Positions 22,840-56,452 of a stretch of 64,000 bases of DNA are shown in pieces. The stretch is from a bacterium (GTDB lineage Bacteria; Patescibacteriota; Doudnabacteria; UBA920), in NCBI GenBank assembly GCA_016699995.1, contig CP064996.1, positions 74,357-138,356 of the forward strand. Direction: 5' to 3'. Position numbers and translations under genes: made by a program. How positions within the stretch are numbered: position 1 is the first letter of the stretch; every line of letters begins with the position of its first letter. Below the pieces are notes generated by a model. The model had not been told where the DNA came from, ran no database searches, and was given only the letters and a program-made list of their open reading frames with translations.

Positions 22840-24126
22840 ATGACTAAAGTTGCAAAAAAAATACCAGCTGCTACCAAACCAGGAAGCCTGAACGGATTGA
22901 AGGAGATTTTTACCCAGAGCGGGCCATACTGGAACACTATTTTAAAGCGCTTGCATAAAACCAGCCGTAGCTATGGCTTTTTGCCAATAGAAACTCCGAT
23001 CGTAGAAGATGAGAAGACTTATAATGATATTTACCGCGACCAGCCGCATATCTTGCAGCGCACTATATATACCCAGCTCGGCACTAAATCTGTAGCCCTC
23101 CGCTCTAGCGTATTGCCCTCGGTTTTGCGCTATTACGTACAAAACAAGGTTTCGGAATCTGAGCCAATGTCCAAGTGGTTCTACCTCGATAATGTAGTGG
23201 AACAGGACGAACGGCAGGCGGCGCATTTCGGCTATCAGTTTGGCTTCGAAGTGTTGGGTTCGTTCAATCACTTATCCGAAGCTCAGGTCATTAGCGCGGT
23301 GTGGGAATTTTTAAAGCGCTTAGGGCTTGAGGAAAGCATACAGATTGAAATCAACATGCTGGGGGATAGTGGTTCGCAGTCCAGCTACCAAAACGTTTTG
23401 CGCGATTACCTTAAGGGCAAGGACTTTGACCTGTGTGAAGACTGCGTTAATCATTTGCCGGTTCGGGCTTTGAATGCCTTGCGCTGCAAAAATCTTAACT
23501 GCCAGCTGGTGGTTGCAGAAGCTCCTAGCGTTTTAGATTATTTAGACGAAAATTCCAAAACTCATTTCACCAATGTTCTGGAGGCTTTAGACGAATTGGC
23601 TATCCCGTATCAGCTGAATCAGTATTATGCGGGGCCTCAAGGAACCACTCTCACCAATTTTGTAATCAAGTACGTTGGCGGTAAAGATTCGCTAGTAATT
23701 GGCGAAGGCGCTCATCATGAACAGCTTTCTAAGAACATGGCTGGCAAGCTAATCCCGGCATTCGGGTTCATCGGCAATCTGGCAACTGTTGCCAAGGCCA
23801 TGGAGCTTTCCGAGATAGAAGCGGAAAAAGATTTTAACAGCGAAGTATTTTTGGTTCCACTAGGCGAATTGGCGGCTAAGAAGAGCCTTCGACTATTCCG
23901 CGATTTGGTTTCTAGTAATATCAAAGTCCATGATCACTTTGGCAGCGAAGGCGTAAAGAACCAGCTCAAGGCAGCTCAGGAATATAAGGCGCCGATTGCT
24001 TTGATTATGGGGCAGAAGGAAGCAATGGATGAAATGGTTATTCTCCGTGATGTAAAAAGCGGGATGCAGGAAGTATTTCCTTACGAAAAGATTATCGAAG
24101 AAGTATGTAAGCGTTTGGGACGCTAG
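22840..24126 (+). CDS. Class II aminoacyl-tRNA synthetase-like protein, a divergent HisRS-like paralogue with a C-terminal anticodon-binding-type domain
   Basis: 428 aa. It has HisRS-like architecture and 'ALRSSVLPSVLRYY', but degenerate motif 2 ('WFYLDNVV...' where 'fRyE' is expected). It carries an extra Cys cluster 'CEDC...CKNLNC'. The C-terminal alpha/beta domain is typical of HisRS, GlyRS and ProRS anticodon-binding domains. Confidence 0.65.
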   Translation: MTKVAKKIPAATKPGSLNGLKEIFTQSGPYWNTILKRLHKTSRSYGFLPIETPIVEDEKTYNDIYRDQPHILQRTIYTQLGTKSVALRSSVLPSVLRYYVQNKVSESEPMSKWFYLDNVVEQDERQAAHFGYQFGFEVLGSFNHLSEAQVISAVWEFLKRLGLEESIQIEINMLGDSGSQSSYQNVLRDYLKGKDFDLCEDCVNHLPVRALNALRCKNLNCQLVVAEAPSVLDYLDENSKTHFTNVLEALDELAIPYQLNQYYAGPQGTTLTNFVIKYVGGKDSLVIGEGAHHEQLSKNMAGKLIPAFGFIGNLATVAKAMELSEIEAEKDFNSEVFLVPLGELAAKKSLRLFRDLVSSNIKVHDHFGSEGVKNQLKAAQEYKAPIALIMGQKEAMDEMVILRDVKSGMQEVFPYEKIIEEVCKRLGR

Positions 24127-29133: not shown

Positions 29134-30357
29134 ATGACAGACAAAGCAGGTAAAATTGAACCGCGATTGTTAAAAGGCTTTCGCGACTACGGTTTAGAAG
29201 AACAAGCTAGCCGACAGGCCATGTTTGCAAGGATCCAATCTGTGTTTGAGCAGTTTGGTTTTTTGCCATTGTCGACCCCGGTTTTGGAATACAAAGAAAT
29301 TTTGATGGGGAAGTATGGCGATGATGAGAAGCTCGTGTACAGCTTTAAAGATAACGGCGACCGTGATGTTGCCATGCGATATGATCTGACTGTTCCTTTG
29401 GCCCGTTACGTGGCGCAAAATCTGGGGGGCTTGCCTTTGCCGTTTAAGCGTTACCAAATTGCCCCGGTTTGGCGCGCGGATAATCCTCAGAAGGGCCGCT
29501 TGCGCGAATTCTACCAGTGCGACGTGGACAGCGTGGGCACCGATAGTCCTTTGTCGGACGCAGAGGTGATTGCCTGTTGCGCAAAGGCTATAGAATCTTT
29601 GGGTGTAACTAATTATAAAATCCGCATAAGCGACCGTGAGTTGCTAAAAGATTTAAGCCCAGACGCTATTCGCTCTTTGGATAAGGTTGATAAAATCGGC
29701 ATCGAAGGAATTACAAAAGAAATGAACGACCGCGGCGTTAGCCAGTCGGAGATTGATCTTGCTATTCAATTGGTAGAGGGGACTCGCGTAGCTGTTCCTG
29801 GTCGACTGCAAAAGGTTATAGATGGACTCAAAGAATATGGGCTTAAGGGTCAAATTGAATTCGATCCTACCATTGCTCGCGGCTTGGATTATTATTCCGG
29901 CACAGTTTTCGAGACAGTTTTGCCGGAGAAGCCGGAGTACGGCAGCATCTGCAGCGGCGGCCGCTACGACGGCTTAGTGGATCAGTTTTCCAGTCAGTCC
30001 CTTGCGGCGGTTGGAGGCAGTATTGGAATCGACCGCTTGTATGGCGCTTTAGAAGAATTAGGGCTAATCCCTAAGACCAGCGGCATTCAGGTATTGGTAC
30101 TGAATCAGGATGAAAGGTATCAAAGCGAATATATTAAGCTAGTCACCCAGCTGCGCAGCGCCGGCATTAACACCGAACTGTACTATGAGGCAGCAAAATT
30201 GGACAAACAGTTCAAATACGGCGAGCGCAAGAATATTCCGTTTGCGGTTGTCATGGGCGAAGAGGAAATCGCCAGCGGTAAAGTAAAACTCAAAAACCTT
30301 TCCACTAGAGAACAAGAAGAAGTTTCTATTGACGAACTAGCAGATAAAATTAGATAA
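29134..30357 (+). CDS. hisS: Histidyl-tRNA synthetase, canonical copy
   Basis: Motif 1 region 'RGFRDY', motif 2 'WRADNPQKGRLREFYQCDVDSVG', motif 3 'GGRYDGL' and a C-terminal anticodon-binding domain. 407 aa. Confidence 0.85.
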   Translation: MTDKAGKIEPRLLKGFRDYGLEEQASRQAMFARIQSVFEQFGFLPLSTPVLEYKEILMGKYGDDEKLVYSFKDNGDRDVAMRYDLTVPLARYVAQNLGGLPLPFKRYQIAPVWRADNPQKGRLREFYQCDVDSVGTDSPLSDAEVIACCAKAIESLGVTNYKIRISDRELLKDLSPDAIRSLDKVDKIGIEGITKEMNDRGVSQSEIDLAIQLVEGTRVAVPGRLQKVIDGLKEYGLKGQIEFDPTIARGLDYYSGTVFETVLPEKPEYGSICSGGRYDGLVDQFSSQSLAAVGGSIGIDRLYGALEELGLIPKTSGIQVLVLNQDERYQSEYIKLVTQLRSAGINTELYYEAAKLDKQFKYGERKNIPFAVVMGEEEIASGKVKLKNLSTREQEEVSIDELADKIR

Positions 30358-35658: not shown

Positions 35659-35782
35659 TCCTCCTAAAAATGACTTTATACTTTAGCAGAATTCCGTACG
35701 ATGGTCAATATTGATATTTTGTATAGTCTTTAGCAAAAATCAAGAGAAAATTGAATATTTTGGATTGAATTTTAACTTAATC

Positions 35783-35810
35783 TTGAATCGAAAATAAGTA
35801 GTATTCAAAT
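35783..35810 (+). promoter_or_regulatory. Promoter of tRNA-like RNA copy 2
   Basis: TTGAAT-N16-TCAAAT followed by 'ATGT' and the first G. It is the same layout as the promoter of copy 1. Confidence 0.45.
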
Positions 35811-35814
35811 ATGT

Positions 35815-35940
35815 GGGTCGGTTCTCTGGTTGAGAAAGAACGGATCGCCACCCATTCTTTGCGGGTTCGATTCCCGTCCGGTCCACCATCCTTGAAAAAG
35901 GATTCATGTGTGTGGTATGATGCACACGGCGATCCGTTCT
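35815..35940 (+). ncRNA. tRNA-like structured RNA, copy 2. Paralogue of 16614-16736, with a different, compensatory 13-bp closing helix.
   Basis: GGGTCGG-TTCTCTGGTTGAGAA-...GCGGGTTCGATTCCCGTCCGGTCCACCA, then ATCCTTGAAAAAGGAT and CATGTGTGTGGTATGATGCACACG. AGAACGGATCGCC (35837-35849) is the exact reverse complement of GGCGATCCGTTCT (35928-35940). No anticodon stem can be drawn. An intrinsic terminator follows. Confidence 0.6.
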
Positions 35941-35960
35941 AAAACAACAAGAACCGAAAT

Positions 35961-35992
35961 AAAACCATCTTTAATAGATGGTTTTATTTTTG
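35961..35992 (+). terminator. Intrinsic terminator ending the tRNA-like RNA transcript
   Basis: 'aaaaccatct ttaat agatggtttt' followed by a T-rich tract. Confidence 0.65.
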
Positions 35993-36028
35993 TTTGAAAT
36001 TTTTATGTTCGTTGGGCATACTGAACCT

Positions 36029-51024: not shown

Positions 51025-54000
51025 ATGTCTAATTTATTAAAAAAAGTTGCTGTAAGCGTGTCTACCGTTGCAACAGTTGCTGCTATGGGCTTAATGCCAA
51101 TGGCTGCAAAAGCTGCTGCTCCTGGTGAAGTCTACAAGACTGGCGATGGTACCGTATGGTTCATCACCTCCGACATGCAAAAGCGACCTTTCACTTCTGC
51201 AGGTGCTTTCTTGAGCTACGGCTTCTTGTCGTTCTCTCAAGTTAAAGACGCAGACGCTAGCGTAACTGCTTTGCCTACTGGCGCGTTCATCGCTCCAGCT
51301 GACGGTAAAATTTTCTGCGCTACCGAAACTAAGGGAAGTGACGTTAAAGGTGAATGTTCCTTAATCACCGGCGGCCAAAAAGCTGCTTTCACTTCTGCTG
51401 CTGTATTCACTGGCCAAGGATTCTCCTTCTCCCGTGCAATCAGCGGTGACTCTTCTTTCTTGAGCAAGACTTCTAACATCGACAGCGCTTCCGCTGGTCA
51501 CTTACCAGGTGTTCTAGTTAACAACTCTGGTACTGTTCAGATGGTAGTAAGCGGCGGCCTATGGGGTATTCCATCTGTTGATGTGTTTAACTCTTGGGGT
51601 TACAGCTTCTCCGATGTAGTTCCAGCTAACGCTGCGGACAAAGCTTTGGCTCAGGTTGGTGTGATCCCTGCTCGTCAGGCTGGTCAGTTAGTACCTTCTG
51701 GTACCACCACTCCAACTCCAAGCGGAGCTTACACTGCTTCTGTTGCTTCTGACAGCCCAGCTGCAAGCACTTTAGTAGCAGGTCAAGCTACAGCTAACTT
51801 GGCTAACTTCACTGTTAGCGGTAACGGTACTGTAACTTCTTTGAAGTTCAAGCGCACTGGCGTATCTGCTGATGCTACCCTTTCTAACGTTTACTTGTTC
51901 GAAGGTAATACTCGTATCACTGATGCTGCTAGCGTTTCTTCTGGTTTCATTACCTTTGCTGGTCTTAACTGGCCAGTAAGTGGCGCTCGTAATGTTTCTG
52001 TTCGTTCTGATATTGCTACTGGTACTTCTGGTCAAACAGTTGGTGTTCAGCTAGTAGCAGTTAACGGCACAGACCTTATCGTGATGCCTTCCGGTGCTAT
52101 TCACACTATTGCTACTGCTACTCTAGCTACTGTAGCCGTAGGTGTTCCTACCTCTACTACTACGACTGATCCAGGTAATGATGTAAATGTATGGCAGTCT
52201 GATTTTAGCGTAGGTACTCGCGACGTTGTATTAAACCGCATTGCTCTTCGCCAAATCGAATCCATTAACTCTGCTGATATCCGCAACTTCCGTCTTTATG
52301 TAGATGGTGTTCAGGTTTCTGCTGTAGGTAACTTGGATGCTAACGGTTATGTAACCTTTGGTGGCTTCTCTAAGACTCTTACCACTGGTTCTCGCCAAAT
52401 TAAAGTTTTGGCTGACGTAATTGGTGGTTCTTCTCGAAACATCAAGATGTCTTTGCGAAACAAAGCTGACTTGGGCTTGGTTGACTCTCAATACCAAGTA
52501 AACGTAACTGCAACTGGTACCTTCCCTGCACAACCTGCAAGCGCAACCGCAGTAAGCTCTGGTAGCATCACTGTTACTAAAGCTGCTAACTCCCCATCAG
52601 GGTCAGTTACTAAGGACGCTTCTAATGTTGTTTTAGGCCGTTGGACCATGACAGCATACGGCGAAGCTATTAAAGTAGAAACTTTAAACTTTGCTATTGA
52701 TACTAACAATACCGATCAAGACTACACTTTGCGTAACGGTAAAGTAATGGTTAATGGTACACAGGTTGGTAGTACTACTGGCTTAGTCGCTGACGGTGCT
52801 GCATCTTCTGCTGCTAGCTTCACTACTAACTTTATGGTTAACCCAGGTACTCCTGTGACCGTAGAATTAGTATCTGACATCTACGACGAAGAAGACACTG
52901 GTGCTGAATTGGTAAACGGTAGCACAATCCAAGCTACTATGTTGACCGGTTCTAGCAATGGTACTCGTCAAGTATCTTTGGGTACTGTAAATGTTCCATC
53001 TTCTAACATTGCTGCAAACGTAGTAACTGTTGCTGTTGGTTCTTTGAGCATGGCTAAGACTGGCACCTATGGTAACCAGACTTTCGTGTCTCCTACATCT
53101 GCGTTCAAGATCGCCTCTTATCAAATCGCTGGTAACAGCACTGAAGACGTAAATGTTCACACTATCGCTGCTGATATTGCAGTAGCTGGTGGTCCTGCTA
53201 TCACTGATGTTACTGATGTATACTTCAAAATCAATGGTACAACTCAGACATCTGTAAAGCCTACTGTAACCGCTACTGGTAACAGTTGGTCTGTATCTTT
53301 CGTAGTCCCTAAGAATGGCACCGTATCTTTGGATATGTATGCCAACTTAAGTGCTGCTTTCGGAACTGCTGATACCGTAGCCGCAACTACTACCGTAACT
53401 GGTACAACTGCTAACTCCGGTACTTCAGTAAACACCGGTGCAGTTGCTGGTCAAACCATCACCGCTGGTGCTGGTGCAATCAGCATGGCCTTCGAAAACT
53501 CTTCTGGTATTGCTGCTAGATTGTTAACAGATGGCCAGAATGACGTTACAACTGCAGCTTACCGTGTAAGCACCTTGAATGACTCTCAGACTCTTCAGGA
53601 CTTCACTGTAACTGTAACTTCTGCTACAACAGTTAACACTGTTAAGTTGTATGCAGATGGCGCATTAATTGCTAGCAAGCCTGGTGCTACTTCCGTATCA
53701 TTTAATGATCTTGGAATCCCGGTACCTGCTAACTCTAGCAAGCTAATCGAAATCAAGCTTGACATTGGTGCTGTAACCAACACTACTGGTCTAGCTACTG
53801 TTACTACTTCTATCACTGCCGCTACAGCCGCTCCTGGCTCTACTGGCGTGGAAGCAGCAGTAACCCCATCCGGCACCGGCAATACTATGTATGTCTTTGC
53901 TTCCGTACCTGTTATTGCACAAGCTGCATTAACTAACGGTGGTGATGGACAATTGACCAACGGTGTGGTCACTATCGCTAAGTTCACTATGAACGCTAAC

Positions 54001-54429
54001 GGTGGTCCTATCCAATGGAAAGCTATGAACTTAGCTTTGTCTAAGTCTACTGCTATTACTGGTTCTGCGGTGCAGTTGTTCCGTGACGGTTCTTTGGTAG
54101 CTACAACAGCTGAAACAATTGCTGCTGGTACTACTGATACTGTTAACATCGTAACTACTAACCCAGAGTCTGTAAGTGGTAGTGTTACTTATGAAGTTCG
54201 CGCTACTATTGCTAACGCAGCAGCAGGTAACTTCTTGACTGCAAGCTTCAGTGCCGCTGAATCTGCTCAAGAATCTGCAGCATACGCTAGCGTGGCTGGT
54301 TCTAACTTCGTATGGTCCGACGTAGTCGGTGACGCTGATGAAGTTCACTCTGTAACTTCTGATGATTGGCACAATGACTATCTAGTTGTTACTTCTCCAA
54401 TCTCTTGGACAGTTGACTGGAATAACTAA
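51025..54429 (+). CDS. Giant (1134 aa) Thr/Ala/Val/Ser-rich cell-surface protein, a putative S-layer or adhesin protein. The N-terminus has three ~60-aa repeats, followed by Ig-like beta-rich repeats.
   Basis: Signal peptide 'MSNLLKKVAVSVSTVATVAAMGLMPMAAKAAA'. Three repeats of the form 'F(T/S)SA..F...GFSFS'. Extremely low-complexity T/A/V/G/S composition. It is preceded by a 1.25-kb ORF-free leader. Confidence 0.8.
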   Translation: MSNLLKKVAVSVSTVATVAAMGLMPMAAKAAAPGEVYKTGDGTVWFITSDMQKRPFTSAGAFLSYGFLSFSQVKDADASVTALPTGAFIAPADGKIFCATETKGSDVKGECSLITGGQKAAFTSAAVFTGQGFSFSRAISGDSSFLSKTSNIDSASAGHLPGVLVNNSGTVQMVVSGGLWGIPSVDVFNSWGYSFSDVVPANAADKALAQVGVIPARQAGQLVPSGTTTPTPSGAYTASVASDSPAASTLVAGQATANLANFTVSGNGTVTSLKFKRTGVSADATLSNVYLFEGNTRITDAASVSSGFITFAGLNWPVSGARNVSVRSDIATGTSGQTVGVQLVAVNGTDLIVMPSGAIHTIATATLATVAVGVPTSTTTTDPGNDVNVWQSDFSVGTRDVVLNRIALRQIESINSADIRNFRLYVDGVQVSAVGNLDANGYVTFGGFSKTLTTGSRQIKVLADVIGGSSRNIKMSLRNKADLGLVDSQYQVNVTATGTFPAQPASATAVSSGSITVTKAANSPSGSVTKDASNVVLGRWTMTAYGEAIKVETLNFAIDTNNTDQDYTLRNGKVMVNGTQVGSTTGLVADGAASSAASFTTNFMVNPGTPVTVELVSDIYDEEDTGAELVNGSTIQATMLTGSSNGTRQVSLGTVNVPSSNIAANVVTVAVGSLSMAKTGTYGNQTFVSPTSAFKIASYQIAGNSTEDVNVHTIAADIAVAGGPAITDVTDVYFKINGTTQTSVKPTVTATGNSWSVSFVVPKNGTVSLDMYANLSAAFGTADTVAATTTVTGTTANSGTSVNTGAVAGQTITAGAGAISMAFENSSGIAARLLTDGQNDVTTAAYRVSTLNDSQTLQDFTVTVTSATTVNTVKLYADGALIASKPGATSVSFNDLGIPVPANSSKLIEIKLDIGAVTNTTGLATVTTSITAATAAPGSTGVEAAVTPSGTGNTMYVFASVPVIAQAALTNGGDGQLTNGVVTIAKFTMNANGGPIQWKAMNLALSKSTAITGSAVQLFRDGSLVATTAETIAAGTTDTVNIVTTNPESVSGSVTYEVRATIANAAAGNFLTASFSAAESAQESAAYASVAGSNFVWSDVVGDADEVHSVTSDDWHNDYLVVTSPISWTVDWNN

Positions 54430-56084: not shown

Positions 56085-56167
56085 TTTATACTTCATTAAA
56101 TCTTAAAGCTCTCTTGAACATGATTGTGTTAATGTTATTTTGTGGGGGCCCAGCTAGGAGCAAGATA

Positions 56168-56270
56168 AGGCTTGTCACTCTTGTCTTAGGGGATCGTTAC
56201 CCCTTGGGTCCACCACGCTTGACATATTGGGAATGGTTGTTTATATTGAATCTAGGTGACAAGCCTTATC
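56168..56270. repeat. Perfect 15-bp inverted repeats, GATAAGGCTTGTCAC and GTGACAAGCCTTATC, flanking a consensus promoter TTGACA-N17-TATATT
   Basis: The repeats lie at 56168-56182 and 56256-56270. The internal promoter is at about 56219-56247. A terminator follows at 56306-56340. No credible ORF. Confidence 0.5.
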
Positions 56271-56452
56271 AATACCAAATCGTTCTTAGCAAGACTTTAA
56301 AACCGCTTTCGCTCTTCGCGAGGCGGTTTTTATTTTGCTTAATTAGTTATAACTAAGGGAGGTTTTTTATAAATGTAACAATTTCTGCGCTGTCGGCGAT
56401 ACACTAGTCAGAAACAAAGGTCGAAGTAAATCAATTAAAGTAAGGAAATTAT

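Follow-up and report, generated by a model that had tools for sequence, protein, structure and literature searches.

The stretch of 64,000 nt analysed here (contig CP064996.1 of assembly GCA_016699995.1, positions 74,357 to 138,356; hereafter the window) carries, between an inositol-monophosphatase-family (SuhB-like) gene and fpg, an element that resembles a tRNA gene, and the question it raises is what an RNA with the acceptor end of an alanine tRNA and an arm that cannot decode might be for. The element, at window 35783-35993 on the plus strand, had been described in a first-pass annotation as the second copy of a paralogous tRNA-like RNA gene, with the first copy on the opposite strand and a different, compensatory helix in each; the sequence, the shared core, the helix difference and the flanking genes were all confirmed. 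Here it is proposed, at roughly even odds (probability about 0.5), that the element is a module in which an alanine-tRNA mimic is gated by a cognate antisense partner. The module is ~230 bp long and has four parts: a weak upstream promoter (P1), a cloverleaf RNA (RNA1), a strong promoter (P2) and a 3' segment of ~65-80 nt that ends in a terminator.

The element under study is referred to as c2, and its paralog c1 is found at 16558-16768 on the minus strand, between pth and dprA, where it is placed between the pth stop codon and the terminator of pth itself. The overall identity between c1 and c2 is 84%, and the two are the same from the T-arm through ...GCACAC, except for one substitution in the T-loop and one substitution plus a 1-nt indel just after CCA. 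A 25-nt core pattern matches only these two sites in the window, with none expected from shuffled sequences. That annotation had counted two copies, and this pair is real; it had missed a third, divergent copy, c3 (56114-56335, plus strand, between DUF4258 and DUF5648 genes), which was found with a profile built from the known copies, and it had also missed the stronger internal promoter P2. Two homologs from elsewhere, L085 and L092, complete the set. A covariance model was built from all five sequences, which score 100-172 bits against it (c1 154.5, c3 102.9), a match by construction because all five are the model's input; a search of the window with this model, with filters off, found no further copy.

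RNA1 of c2 (35815-35888, plus strand) is a predicted cloverleaf of 74 nt, within a family range of 70-74 nt, and reads GGGUCGG...GCGGG-UUCGAUU-CCCGU-CCGGUCC-ACCA. It has a 7-bp acceptor stem (35815-35821 with 35878-35884) with an invariant G3:U70 pair, a short D-arm (35824-35834), a third arm of 8 bp with an 8-nt loop (35836-35859), a T-arm (35861-35877), the discriminator A73 and an encoded CCA (ACCA at 35885-35888). When RNA1 is folded alone from G1 to CCA and without constraints, the minimum-free-energy structure is the cloverleaf in c2, L085 and c3. The RNAalifold consensus of four copies is also the cloverleaf, with a D-arm of 3 bp and a 5-nt loop and a T-arm of 5 bp and a 7-nt loop besides the acceptor and the third arm, and 10 of its 23 pairs are changed on both sides. 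Both the acceptor and the T-arm are 100% paired in the five sequences, and in c3 (acceptor GGGCCCA/UGGGUCC, T-loop AUCGUUA, ACCA) pairs 6-65 and 7-64 are changed on both sides and compensated. G3:U70 and A73 are the identity elements of alanine tRNAs, and minihelices with G3:U70 suffice as AlaRS substrates for alanylation. The sequence elements of such a substrate (G3:U70 in a 7-bp helix, A73 and CCA) are present in 5/5 sequences, with the limit that a free CCA end would need 3' processing; ACCA is encoded in all copies, as CCA is in the four genuine tRNA genes of the window.

As in tRNA (RF00005), RNA1 has a 7-bp acceptor, a T-arm with a 7-nt loop, and the discriminator followed by CCA. The tRNA anticodon arm (5-bp stem, 7-nt loop, U33, anticodon and purine 37) is absent, its place being taken by the 8-bp stem with its 8-nt loop, and the variable region has 1 nt where a tRNA has at least 4-5 nt. 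The loops of this arm (AUCGCCAC in c2, CUUGUCAC and CUAACCAC) are of the U-turn type NUNNYCAC. ARAGORN and Rfam at gathering thresholds found only four ordinary tRNAs in the window and left RNA1 uncalled; the best match of c2 in the tRNA clan is tRNA-Sec, with 22 bits against the 47 required.

At relaxed thresholds, c1 matches transfer-messenger RNA (tmRNA, RF00023), with 16.9 bits (E = 3e-5) against 47 required; the tmRNA scores obtained are 16.9 and 10.4 bits. The model aligns both halves of the tRNA-like domain and skips the 308-nt body. This best Rfam match of c1 gives some ground to a different proposal, in which RNA1 is a miniature tmRNA, an alanine-charged domain without a tag frame that would enter stalled ribosomes with SmpB and take over the nascent chain, to be released by drop-off and by the neighboring peptidyl-tRNA hydrolase. 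Like the tRNA-like domain of tmRNA, RNA1 has G3:U70, A73, CCA, a canonical T-arm, no decoding anticodon and a helix that leaves from the anticodon-stem position; its D-region UUYCUGGWU also resembles that of tmRNA, and the ancestral copy lies directly after pth. However, tmRNA has 260-430 nt against the 74 nt of RNA1, which has its own D-stem and lacks the mRNA-like domain, the tag frame and the pseudoknots: 39 nt is all that separates its halves, the copies have no reading frame in common, and ARAGORN calls no tmRNA. The partner strand of the module's helix lies after CCA, so that the helix crosses the acceptor stem, unlike in tmRNA. The order of two-piece (permuted) tmRNA (RF04321) is not found either, as the 5' acceptor strand precedes the T-arm (9-13 bits against 47). 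No smpB was found in the window, nor were genes for AlaRS or Rsr; linkage to pth is more simply explained by descent from a tRNA-Ala(CGC) gene located there in other members of the Candidate Phyla Radiation (CPR), and the absence of the element from close relatives means that it is not a core rescue factor. The miniature tmRNA is considered improbable.

By their defining features, the RNA1 family is not tRNA, tmRNA or YrlA (RF02553, discussed below). No description of such a tRNA-like module RNA was found in the literature, and judged by Rfam 15 and the literature that could be searched, the family is apparently undescribed.

The element also has a second set of pairings. The 5' strand and loop of the third arm (35838-35849 in c2) pair with a segment ~40 nt beyond CCA (35928-35939), forming helix H (GAACGGAUCGCC/GGCGAUCCGUUC in c2, AUAGCUUGUC/GACAAGCUAU in c1 and AAUGGCUAACC/GGUUAGCCAUU in L085; 15-16 bp in c3). 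This is the compensatory helix of the earlier claim, and it is 97.7% paired in the five sequences, with changes on both sides in 6 of 12 pairs. Helix H crosses the acceptor stem. As long as the chain is uncut, it excludes an L-shaped tRNA fold, since the CCA would then be held at the far end of H. A second block of 6-8 nt lies immediately ahead of the terminator and pairs with nt 4/5-11/12 of c1-type copies or nt 9-16 of c3; this pairing is preserved in 5/5 sequences, where U-A has changed to G-C and C-G to U-A. In c2 the block is AGAACCGA (35950-35957), which pairs with 35818-35825. In the c1-type copies it is in competition with the D-stem and with part of the acceptor. Covariation thus ties one set of nucleotides both to the arm hairpin and to helix H as alternatives, and therefore both the free cloverleaf and the paired state appear to be selected. 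In cofolding, cognate pairs of RNA1 and the predicted second transcript (RNA2) gain -12.5 to -20.7 kcal/mol (-20.7 for c2) against -0.5 to -7.6 for non-cognate pairs; each copy has its own helix sequence, which suggests that paralogous pairs within one genome do not cross-react. An invertible promoter, with the H strands acting as DNA inverted repeats around P2, was considered and rejected: the repeat sequence differs per copy, only its complementarity being kept, and the segment of ~78 bp is very short.

The partner strand of helix H could be supplied by a transcript of its own. In c2, P2 (35892-35921, plus strand) is a sigma-70-type promoter sequence, TTGAAA-N18-TATGAT with a TG extension, found by consensus scan; c1 has the same with N17 and c3 has TTGACA-N17-TATATT, matching the consensus at 10/12 (c1 and c2) and 11/12 (c3) positions. 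Sites of this quality number 29 in the 128,000 strand positions of the window (2.3e-4 per position). The -35 hexamer begins exactly 4 nt after CCA in c1, c2 and c3, although c3 is otherwise unalignable there, and if transcription began 7 nt after the -10 hexamer, its first nucleotide would be the first of the H3' strand in every copy. Given this conserved promoter and start, RNA2 is inferred as a second transcript of 65-80 nt, consisting of a 5' seed, a linker, the second block and the terminator. In c2 the segment runs from 35928 to 35993, with the H3' strand (35928-35939) at the predicted start and the terminator hairpin at 35957-35989, followed by the U-tract. The hairpin AAAACCAUC...GAUGGUUUU followed by a U-tract bears out the terminator described earlier. 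Two candidate explanations of the downstream part were discarded, namely a hidden peptide in the 3' segment, for which no frame is conserved between copies, and a T-box-like leader, as downstream of c1 there is a second terminator but no regulated gene, and CCA has no conserved UGGN partner.

The promoter attributed earlier to c2, TTGAAT-N16-TCAAAT, is P1 of the module (35783-35810, plus strand; -35 TTGAAT at 35783-35788 and -10-like TCAAAT at 35805-35810). The sequence is there, and the -35 and its spacing are conserved, CTTGAAY being located exactly 26 nt before G1 in c1, c2, c3, L085 and L092, all five that are readable at this point; as a promoter it is weak, matching only 8/12 consensus positions and falling below the scan threshold.

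P2 overlaps a block that can also fold as two hairpins, and this bears on a different architecture, considered possible though doubtful, in which P1 drives a single structured RNA of ~180 nt. This RNA would form a rod in which the 5' and 3' ends pair with each other (an outer helix plus H), with a multiloop holding the T-arm and the two hairpins, built like a Y RNA or another protein-tethering RNA, and the internal promoter-like match would be incidental. The rod is the minimum-free-energy fold of the full transcript in all three copies (z-scores -8.5, -4.4 and -4.0), its outer helix and helix H covary, and the part enclosed by H aligns with the Rfam YrlA model over its full length. However, the YrlA match of c2 reaches 17.7 bits against a gathering score of 69, mostly from the T-arm, and the rod leaves 10-12 perfectly conserved nucleotides (CCGGUCCACC) unpaired, though they make up a textbook 7-bp acceptor with ACCA, with compensatory changes in c3. 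c3 does not conserve the two hairpins of the c1 and c2 block but does have the -35 and -10 hexamers at an unchanged offset, and the block is at least as much a promoter as two conserved hairpins. YrlA is similar to the module in being an RNA whose ends can pair and that holds a tRNA-derived module with a T-arm, and it may be handled by tRNA enzymes (PMC4201824). Identity with a Y RNA was nevertheless ruled out: YrlA has a closed acceptor-like hairpin without CCA, while the module RNA has an open acceptor with ACCA, the 5' strand lacks the GNCGAAN0-1G motif (PMC4201824), and there is no rsr neighbor. No TROVE domain (Ro60/Rsr) was found among 53 scanned proteins of the window or among the called genes of related loci.

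In the gated alanine-tRNA mimic, RNA1, transcribed from P1, would fold first as a tRNA mimic and be trimmed to CCA like the CCA-encoding tRNA genes of the window. It could then be handled by proteins that recognize tRNA-Ala, AlaRS above all, while its third arm (8 bp, 8-nt loop) would be unable to decode. The 5' end of RNA2, with 12-16 nt complementary to the loop and the 5' strand of the arm, would dock on the loop as a toehold, displace the 3' strand of the arm and zip into a two-helix duplex (H plus the second block), dismantling the cloverleaf, with the second block of RNA2 (6-8 nt) pairing with the D-region and the 5' acceptor strand and RNA2 ending at the intrinsic terminator. The duplex would switch the mimic off or mark it for double-strand-specific cleavage. 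The RNA2 sequence also makes up the 3' portion of transcripts reading through from P1 and could act there as a 3' segment. Sequence comparison shows the cloverleaf with its alanine marks, both of the alternative pairings, their cognate specificity and the conserved promoter-like and terminator elements; transcription from both promoters, CCA trimming, recognition by AlaRS and loop-first docking with displacement are presumed steps. Rescue, alanine donation, protein titration and toxicity could all be the output.

Several points weigh against this proposal. The promoters, the CCA 3' end and a separate RNA2 are known from sequence only. Four of the five sequences (c1, c2, L085 and L092) are closely related, with almost the same core, so that much of the independent evidence leans on c3. 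L092 lacks the H5' strand, yet the rest is kept, meaning that the pairing is dispensable or that the L092 copy is decaying. In c1-type copies the two potential hairpins at P2 may serve as RNA instead of, or besides, a promoter, and a promoter just after the CCA of a tRNA is also seen with ordinary phage tRNA genes. The patchy occurrence of the module among close relatives shows that it is dispensable.

One of the possible outputs can be developed into an all-RNA addiction or defense-type module, in which an alanine-chargeable mimic, possibly harmful, is held in check by an antisense RNA from the stronger promoter. The mimic could titrate AlaRS or EF-Tu, or enter ribosomes without decoding, and the paralogs would have diversified their helices so that each antidote recognizes its own mimic only. 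The cognate-specific pairing, the weak and strong promoters and the patchy multi-copy spread are circumstantial signs of this, that is, of a type VIII-like RNA-RNA pair in which one RNA would inhibit growth and its co-encoded partner neutralize it, and no tRNA-mimic toxin/antitoxin pair of such a kind was found in the literature; the proposal is judged unlikely. The same signs are shared with cis-encoded antisense pairs that use U-turn (YUNR) loops, such as CopA/CopT and type I and RNA-RNA toxin-antitoxin systems, in which a loop presented on a long stem also meets the single-stranded 5' end of its partner, a weak and a strong promoter are combined, paralogs do not cross-pair and multi-copy distribution is patchy. 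The module differs from these pairs in that its partner is encoded downstream on the same strand instead of the opposite one, its target is a tRNA mimic and not an mRNA, and its toxicity is conjectural.

The origin of RNA1 had been sought in a tRNA-Lys gene. The acceptor 5' strand of c2, GGGTCGG, does equal that of the tRNA-Lys(CTT) of the window, but the other copies have GGGCCGG or GGGCCCA, and G3:U70 and A73, present in every copy, are alanine marks, tRNA-Lys having G3-C70. The acceptor of c3 is identical to that of the tRNA-Ala(CGC) genes of two CPR loci (L034 and L037), and viral tRNA-Ala(UGC) genes have the c1-type acceptor GGGCCGG/CCGGUCC. At six or more CPR metagenome loci (among them L034, L037, L071, L076, L079 and L081), pth is immediately followed by a tRNA-Ala(CGC) gene, and this position after pth is common to those genes, c1, L085 and L092. 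The loop AUCGCCAC of c2 retains UCGC. Identity over the whole length fails to tell tRNA species apart, so identity elements, acceptor stems and synteny carry the case, and by these the derivation of RNA1 from a tRNA-Ala(CGC) gene downstream of pth, not from tRNA-Lys, is supported. Compared with the tRNA-Ala(CGC) genes of CPR bacteria and the alanine minihelix concept, with which it shares the position after pth, the acceptor (in c3), the encoded CCA and the UCGC of the c2 loop, RNA1 differs in its 8-bp/8-nt arm, its 1-nt variable region, its D-arm of 3 bp with a 5-nt loop and its coupled complementary downstream segment. The left borders of c2 and c3 carry a few nucleotides of the 3' end of pth (…AAATCTTAAAG…), which makes them secondary duplicates, at the DNA level, of a pth-linked progenitor.

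Recombination between c1 and c2 had also been suggested as a means of inverting the 19-kb segment that they bracket, with a comparison of relatives as the check. The two are indeed inverted and share ~85 nt at ~97% identity, in which the identical stretches are only ~40 nt each. The relative GCA_964424635.1, which lacks both copies, has pth (minus strand) and fpg (plus strand) ~21 kb apart in the same relative orientation as the window, and so no inversion was seen; c2, moreover, is absent from six relatives. Inversion by recombination is unlikely, and taken as a whole, with an inverted pair derived from tRNA-Lys whose orientation allows it, this explanation is barely credible in view of the alanine marks and the matches to tRNA-Ala.

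The family has so far been seen in one Saccharibacteria subclade only. L085, from an uncultured Candidatus Saccharibacteria metagenome-assembled genome, is the nearest named homolog; a scan of a genome collection with the pattern T-loop...CCACCA...TGTGGTAYGATG gave this one true homolog and one chance match in a tRNA-Tyr, and as the pattern is too specific for c3-type copies, the spread of the family is a lower bound. Eight relatives of Pth were looked up, seven of their loci being readable downstream of pth. The RNA is present downstream of pth in the relatives with 94% (L112, truncated start), 79% (L092, complete) and 77% (L085) Pth identity and absent from that position in those with 81%, 80%, 77% and 77%, as well as in the closest metagenome relative (~72%). 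L112, from the closest relative, is a contig of 1150 nt (Logan, SRR32548950) that retains the 5' start of a c1 ortholog and ends 27 nt into it; assemblies break in this way at multi-copy repeats. None of the 80 metagenome loci around pth relatives has the RNA, and it was there that the synteny with tRNA-Ala(CGC) was revealed. The c2 site is empty in 6/6 relatives with 85-92% identical Fpg, by which c2 is a lineage-specific insertion. As a separate observation, three TTGAAT or TTGAAT-like repeats (ATTGAATATTTTGGATTGAATTTTAACTTAATCTTGAATCG) are present upstream of c2, at 35750-35790, within this insertion.

Such a distribution might be expected if the copies were decaying tRNA pseudogenes or passive repeats without function at the RNA level, the more so as c2 is a recent insertion, c2 and c3 carry a few nucleotides from the end of pth, L092 has lost an internal part and the L112 contig breaks inside the element like a repeat. 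Nevertheless, decaying DNA would not be expected to show compensation in four helices; G3:U70 is invariant in 5/5 sequences, promoters and terminators are conserved, and genomes with Pth only 77% identical have 100% the same core. Decay without function is thus very improbable.

In phages, no family member was found in IMG/VR or phage records, apart from two tRNA-Ala-like elements without an anticodon arm; a BLAST search of a phage collection and a viral scan for CCA plus a promoter gave only ordinary tRNAs and these two, and viral matches to the hairpin-2 block were set aside as chance matches in coding sequence. The first, of ~60 nt and unannotated, is in a tRNA cluster of Roseobacter phage DSS3P8 (L106 369-430; KT870145.1 ~11362-11423) and is not called by ARAGORN; the second, also of ~60 nt and unannotated, is in an IMG/VR contig (L107 206-264, reverse strand). 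They share with RNA1 the acceptor GGGCCGG/CCGGUCC, the T-arm and ACCA, and L092 has the same reduced shape; over the 28 3' nt, c1 and c2 are identical to DSS3P8 at 27-28/28 positions and to L107 at 26-27/28. The phage elements differ in having neither a complementary downstream segment nor an internal promoter, and the likeness may be convergence on tRNA-Ala.

If the gated mimic is real, a redundant tRNA-Ala(CGC) gene of a genome-reduced episymbiont would have been repurposed as a non-decoding RNA with the full alanine identity set. It would allow a natural test of what an RNA charged with alanine can do on or off the ribosome, from rescue and amino-acid donation to sequestration of tRNA-binding proteins and toxicity. 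It would also be a compact switch in which a tRNA fold is opened by toehold-type strand displacement, with orthogonal pairs of interest for RNA engineering. The narrow and patchy distribution limits its general importance unless more members turn up. There is also a gap in annotation, as the element is missed by tRNA and non-coding RNA finders and gene callers may put spurious open reading frames (ORFs) on it. In the window, the ORF at 35740-35925 (minus strand), formerly listed as an antisense artefact of c2, has no relative among 5.8 billion proteins, consistent with that view, and the ORFs overlapping the RNA modules are most likely artefacts.

The paralogous modules have the same layout as c2. 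In c1 (minus strand), the -35 of P1 is at 16768-16763, RNA1 at 16736-16663, P2 at 16659-16631, the H3' strand at 16624-16614, pairing with 16712-16702, and the terminator at 16590-16560. In c3 (plus strand), the -35 of P1 is at 56114-56119, RNA1 at 56146-56215 and P2 at 56219-56247; helix H pairs 56164-56179 with 56255-56270, the second block pairs 56154-56161 with 56282-56289, and the terminator is at 56300-56335. The window has two DUF5648 genes, one at 56453-56998, after c3, and the other at 11034-11753, after tRNA-Lys(TTT) and a small ORF. An ORF without a Pfam match (51025-54429, 1134 aa) was found upstream of a TPR protein, the DUF4258 gene and type IV pilus genes.

Between c1 and dprA, a conserved structured element of ~125 nt, unrelated to the modules, lies upstream of dprA (16396-16523, minus strand). 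It has an invariant AUAGGAGGGAU loop and is also present in L004, L005, L006, L008, L010, L013, L026, L035, L039, L085, L093, L094 and L113. In 14 CPR sequences, 18 of its 26 predicted pairs are compensated, and no Rfam family matches it, whether thresholds are set at gathering level or relaxed; it may be a dprA leader or a CPR non-coding RNA not yet described. Additionally, the window has two HisRS-like genes 5 kb apart, at 22840-24126 and 29134-30357. The first matches the HisRS and anticodon-binding domains only weakly and could be a HisZ-like gene or a diverged paralog.

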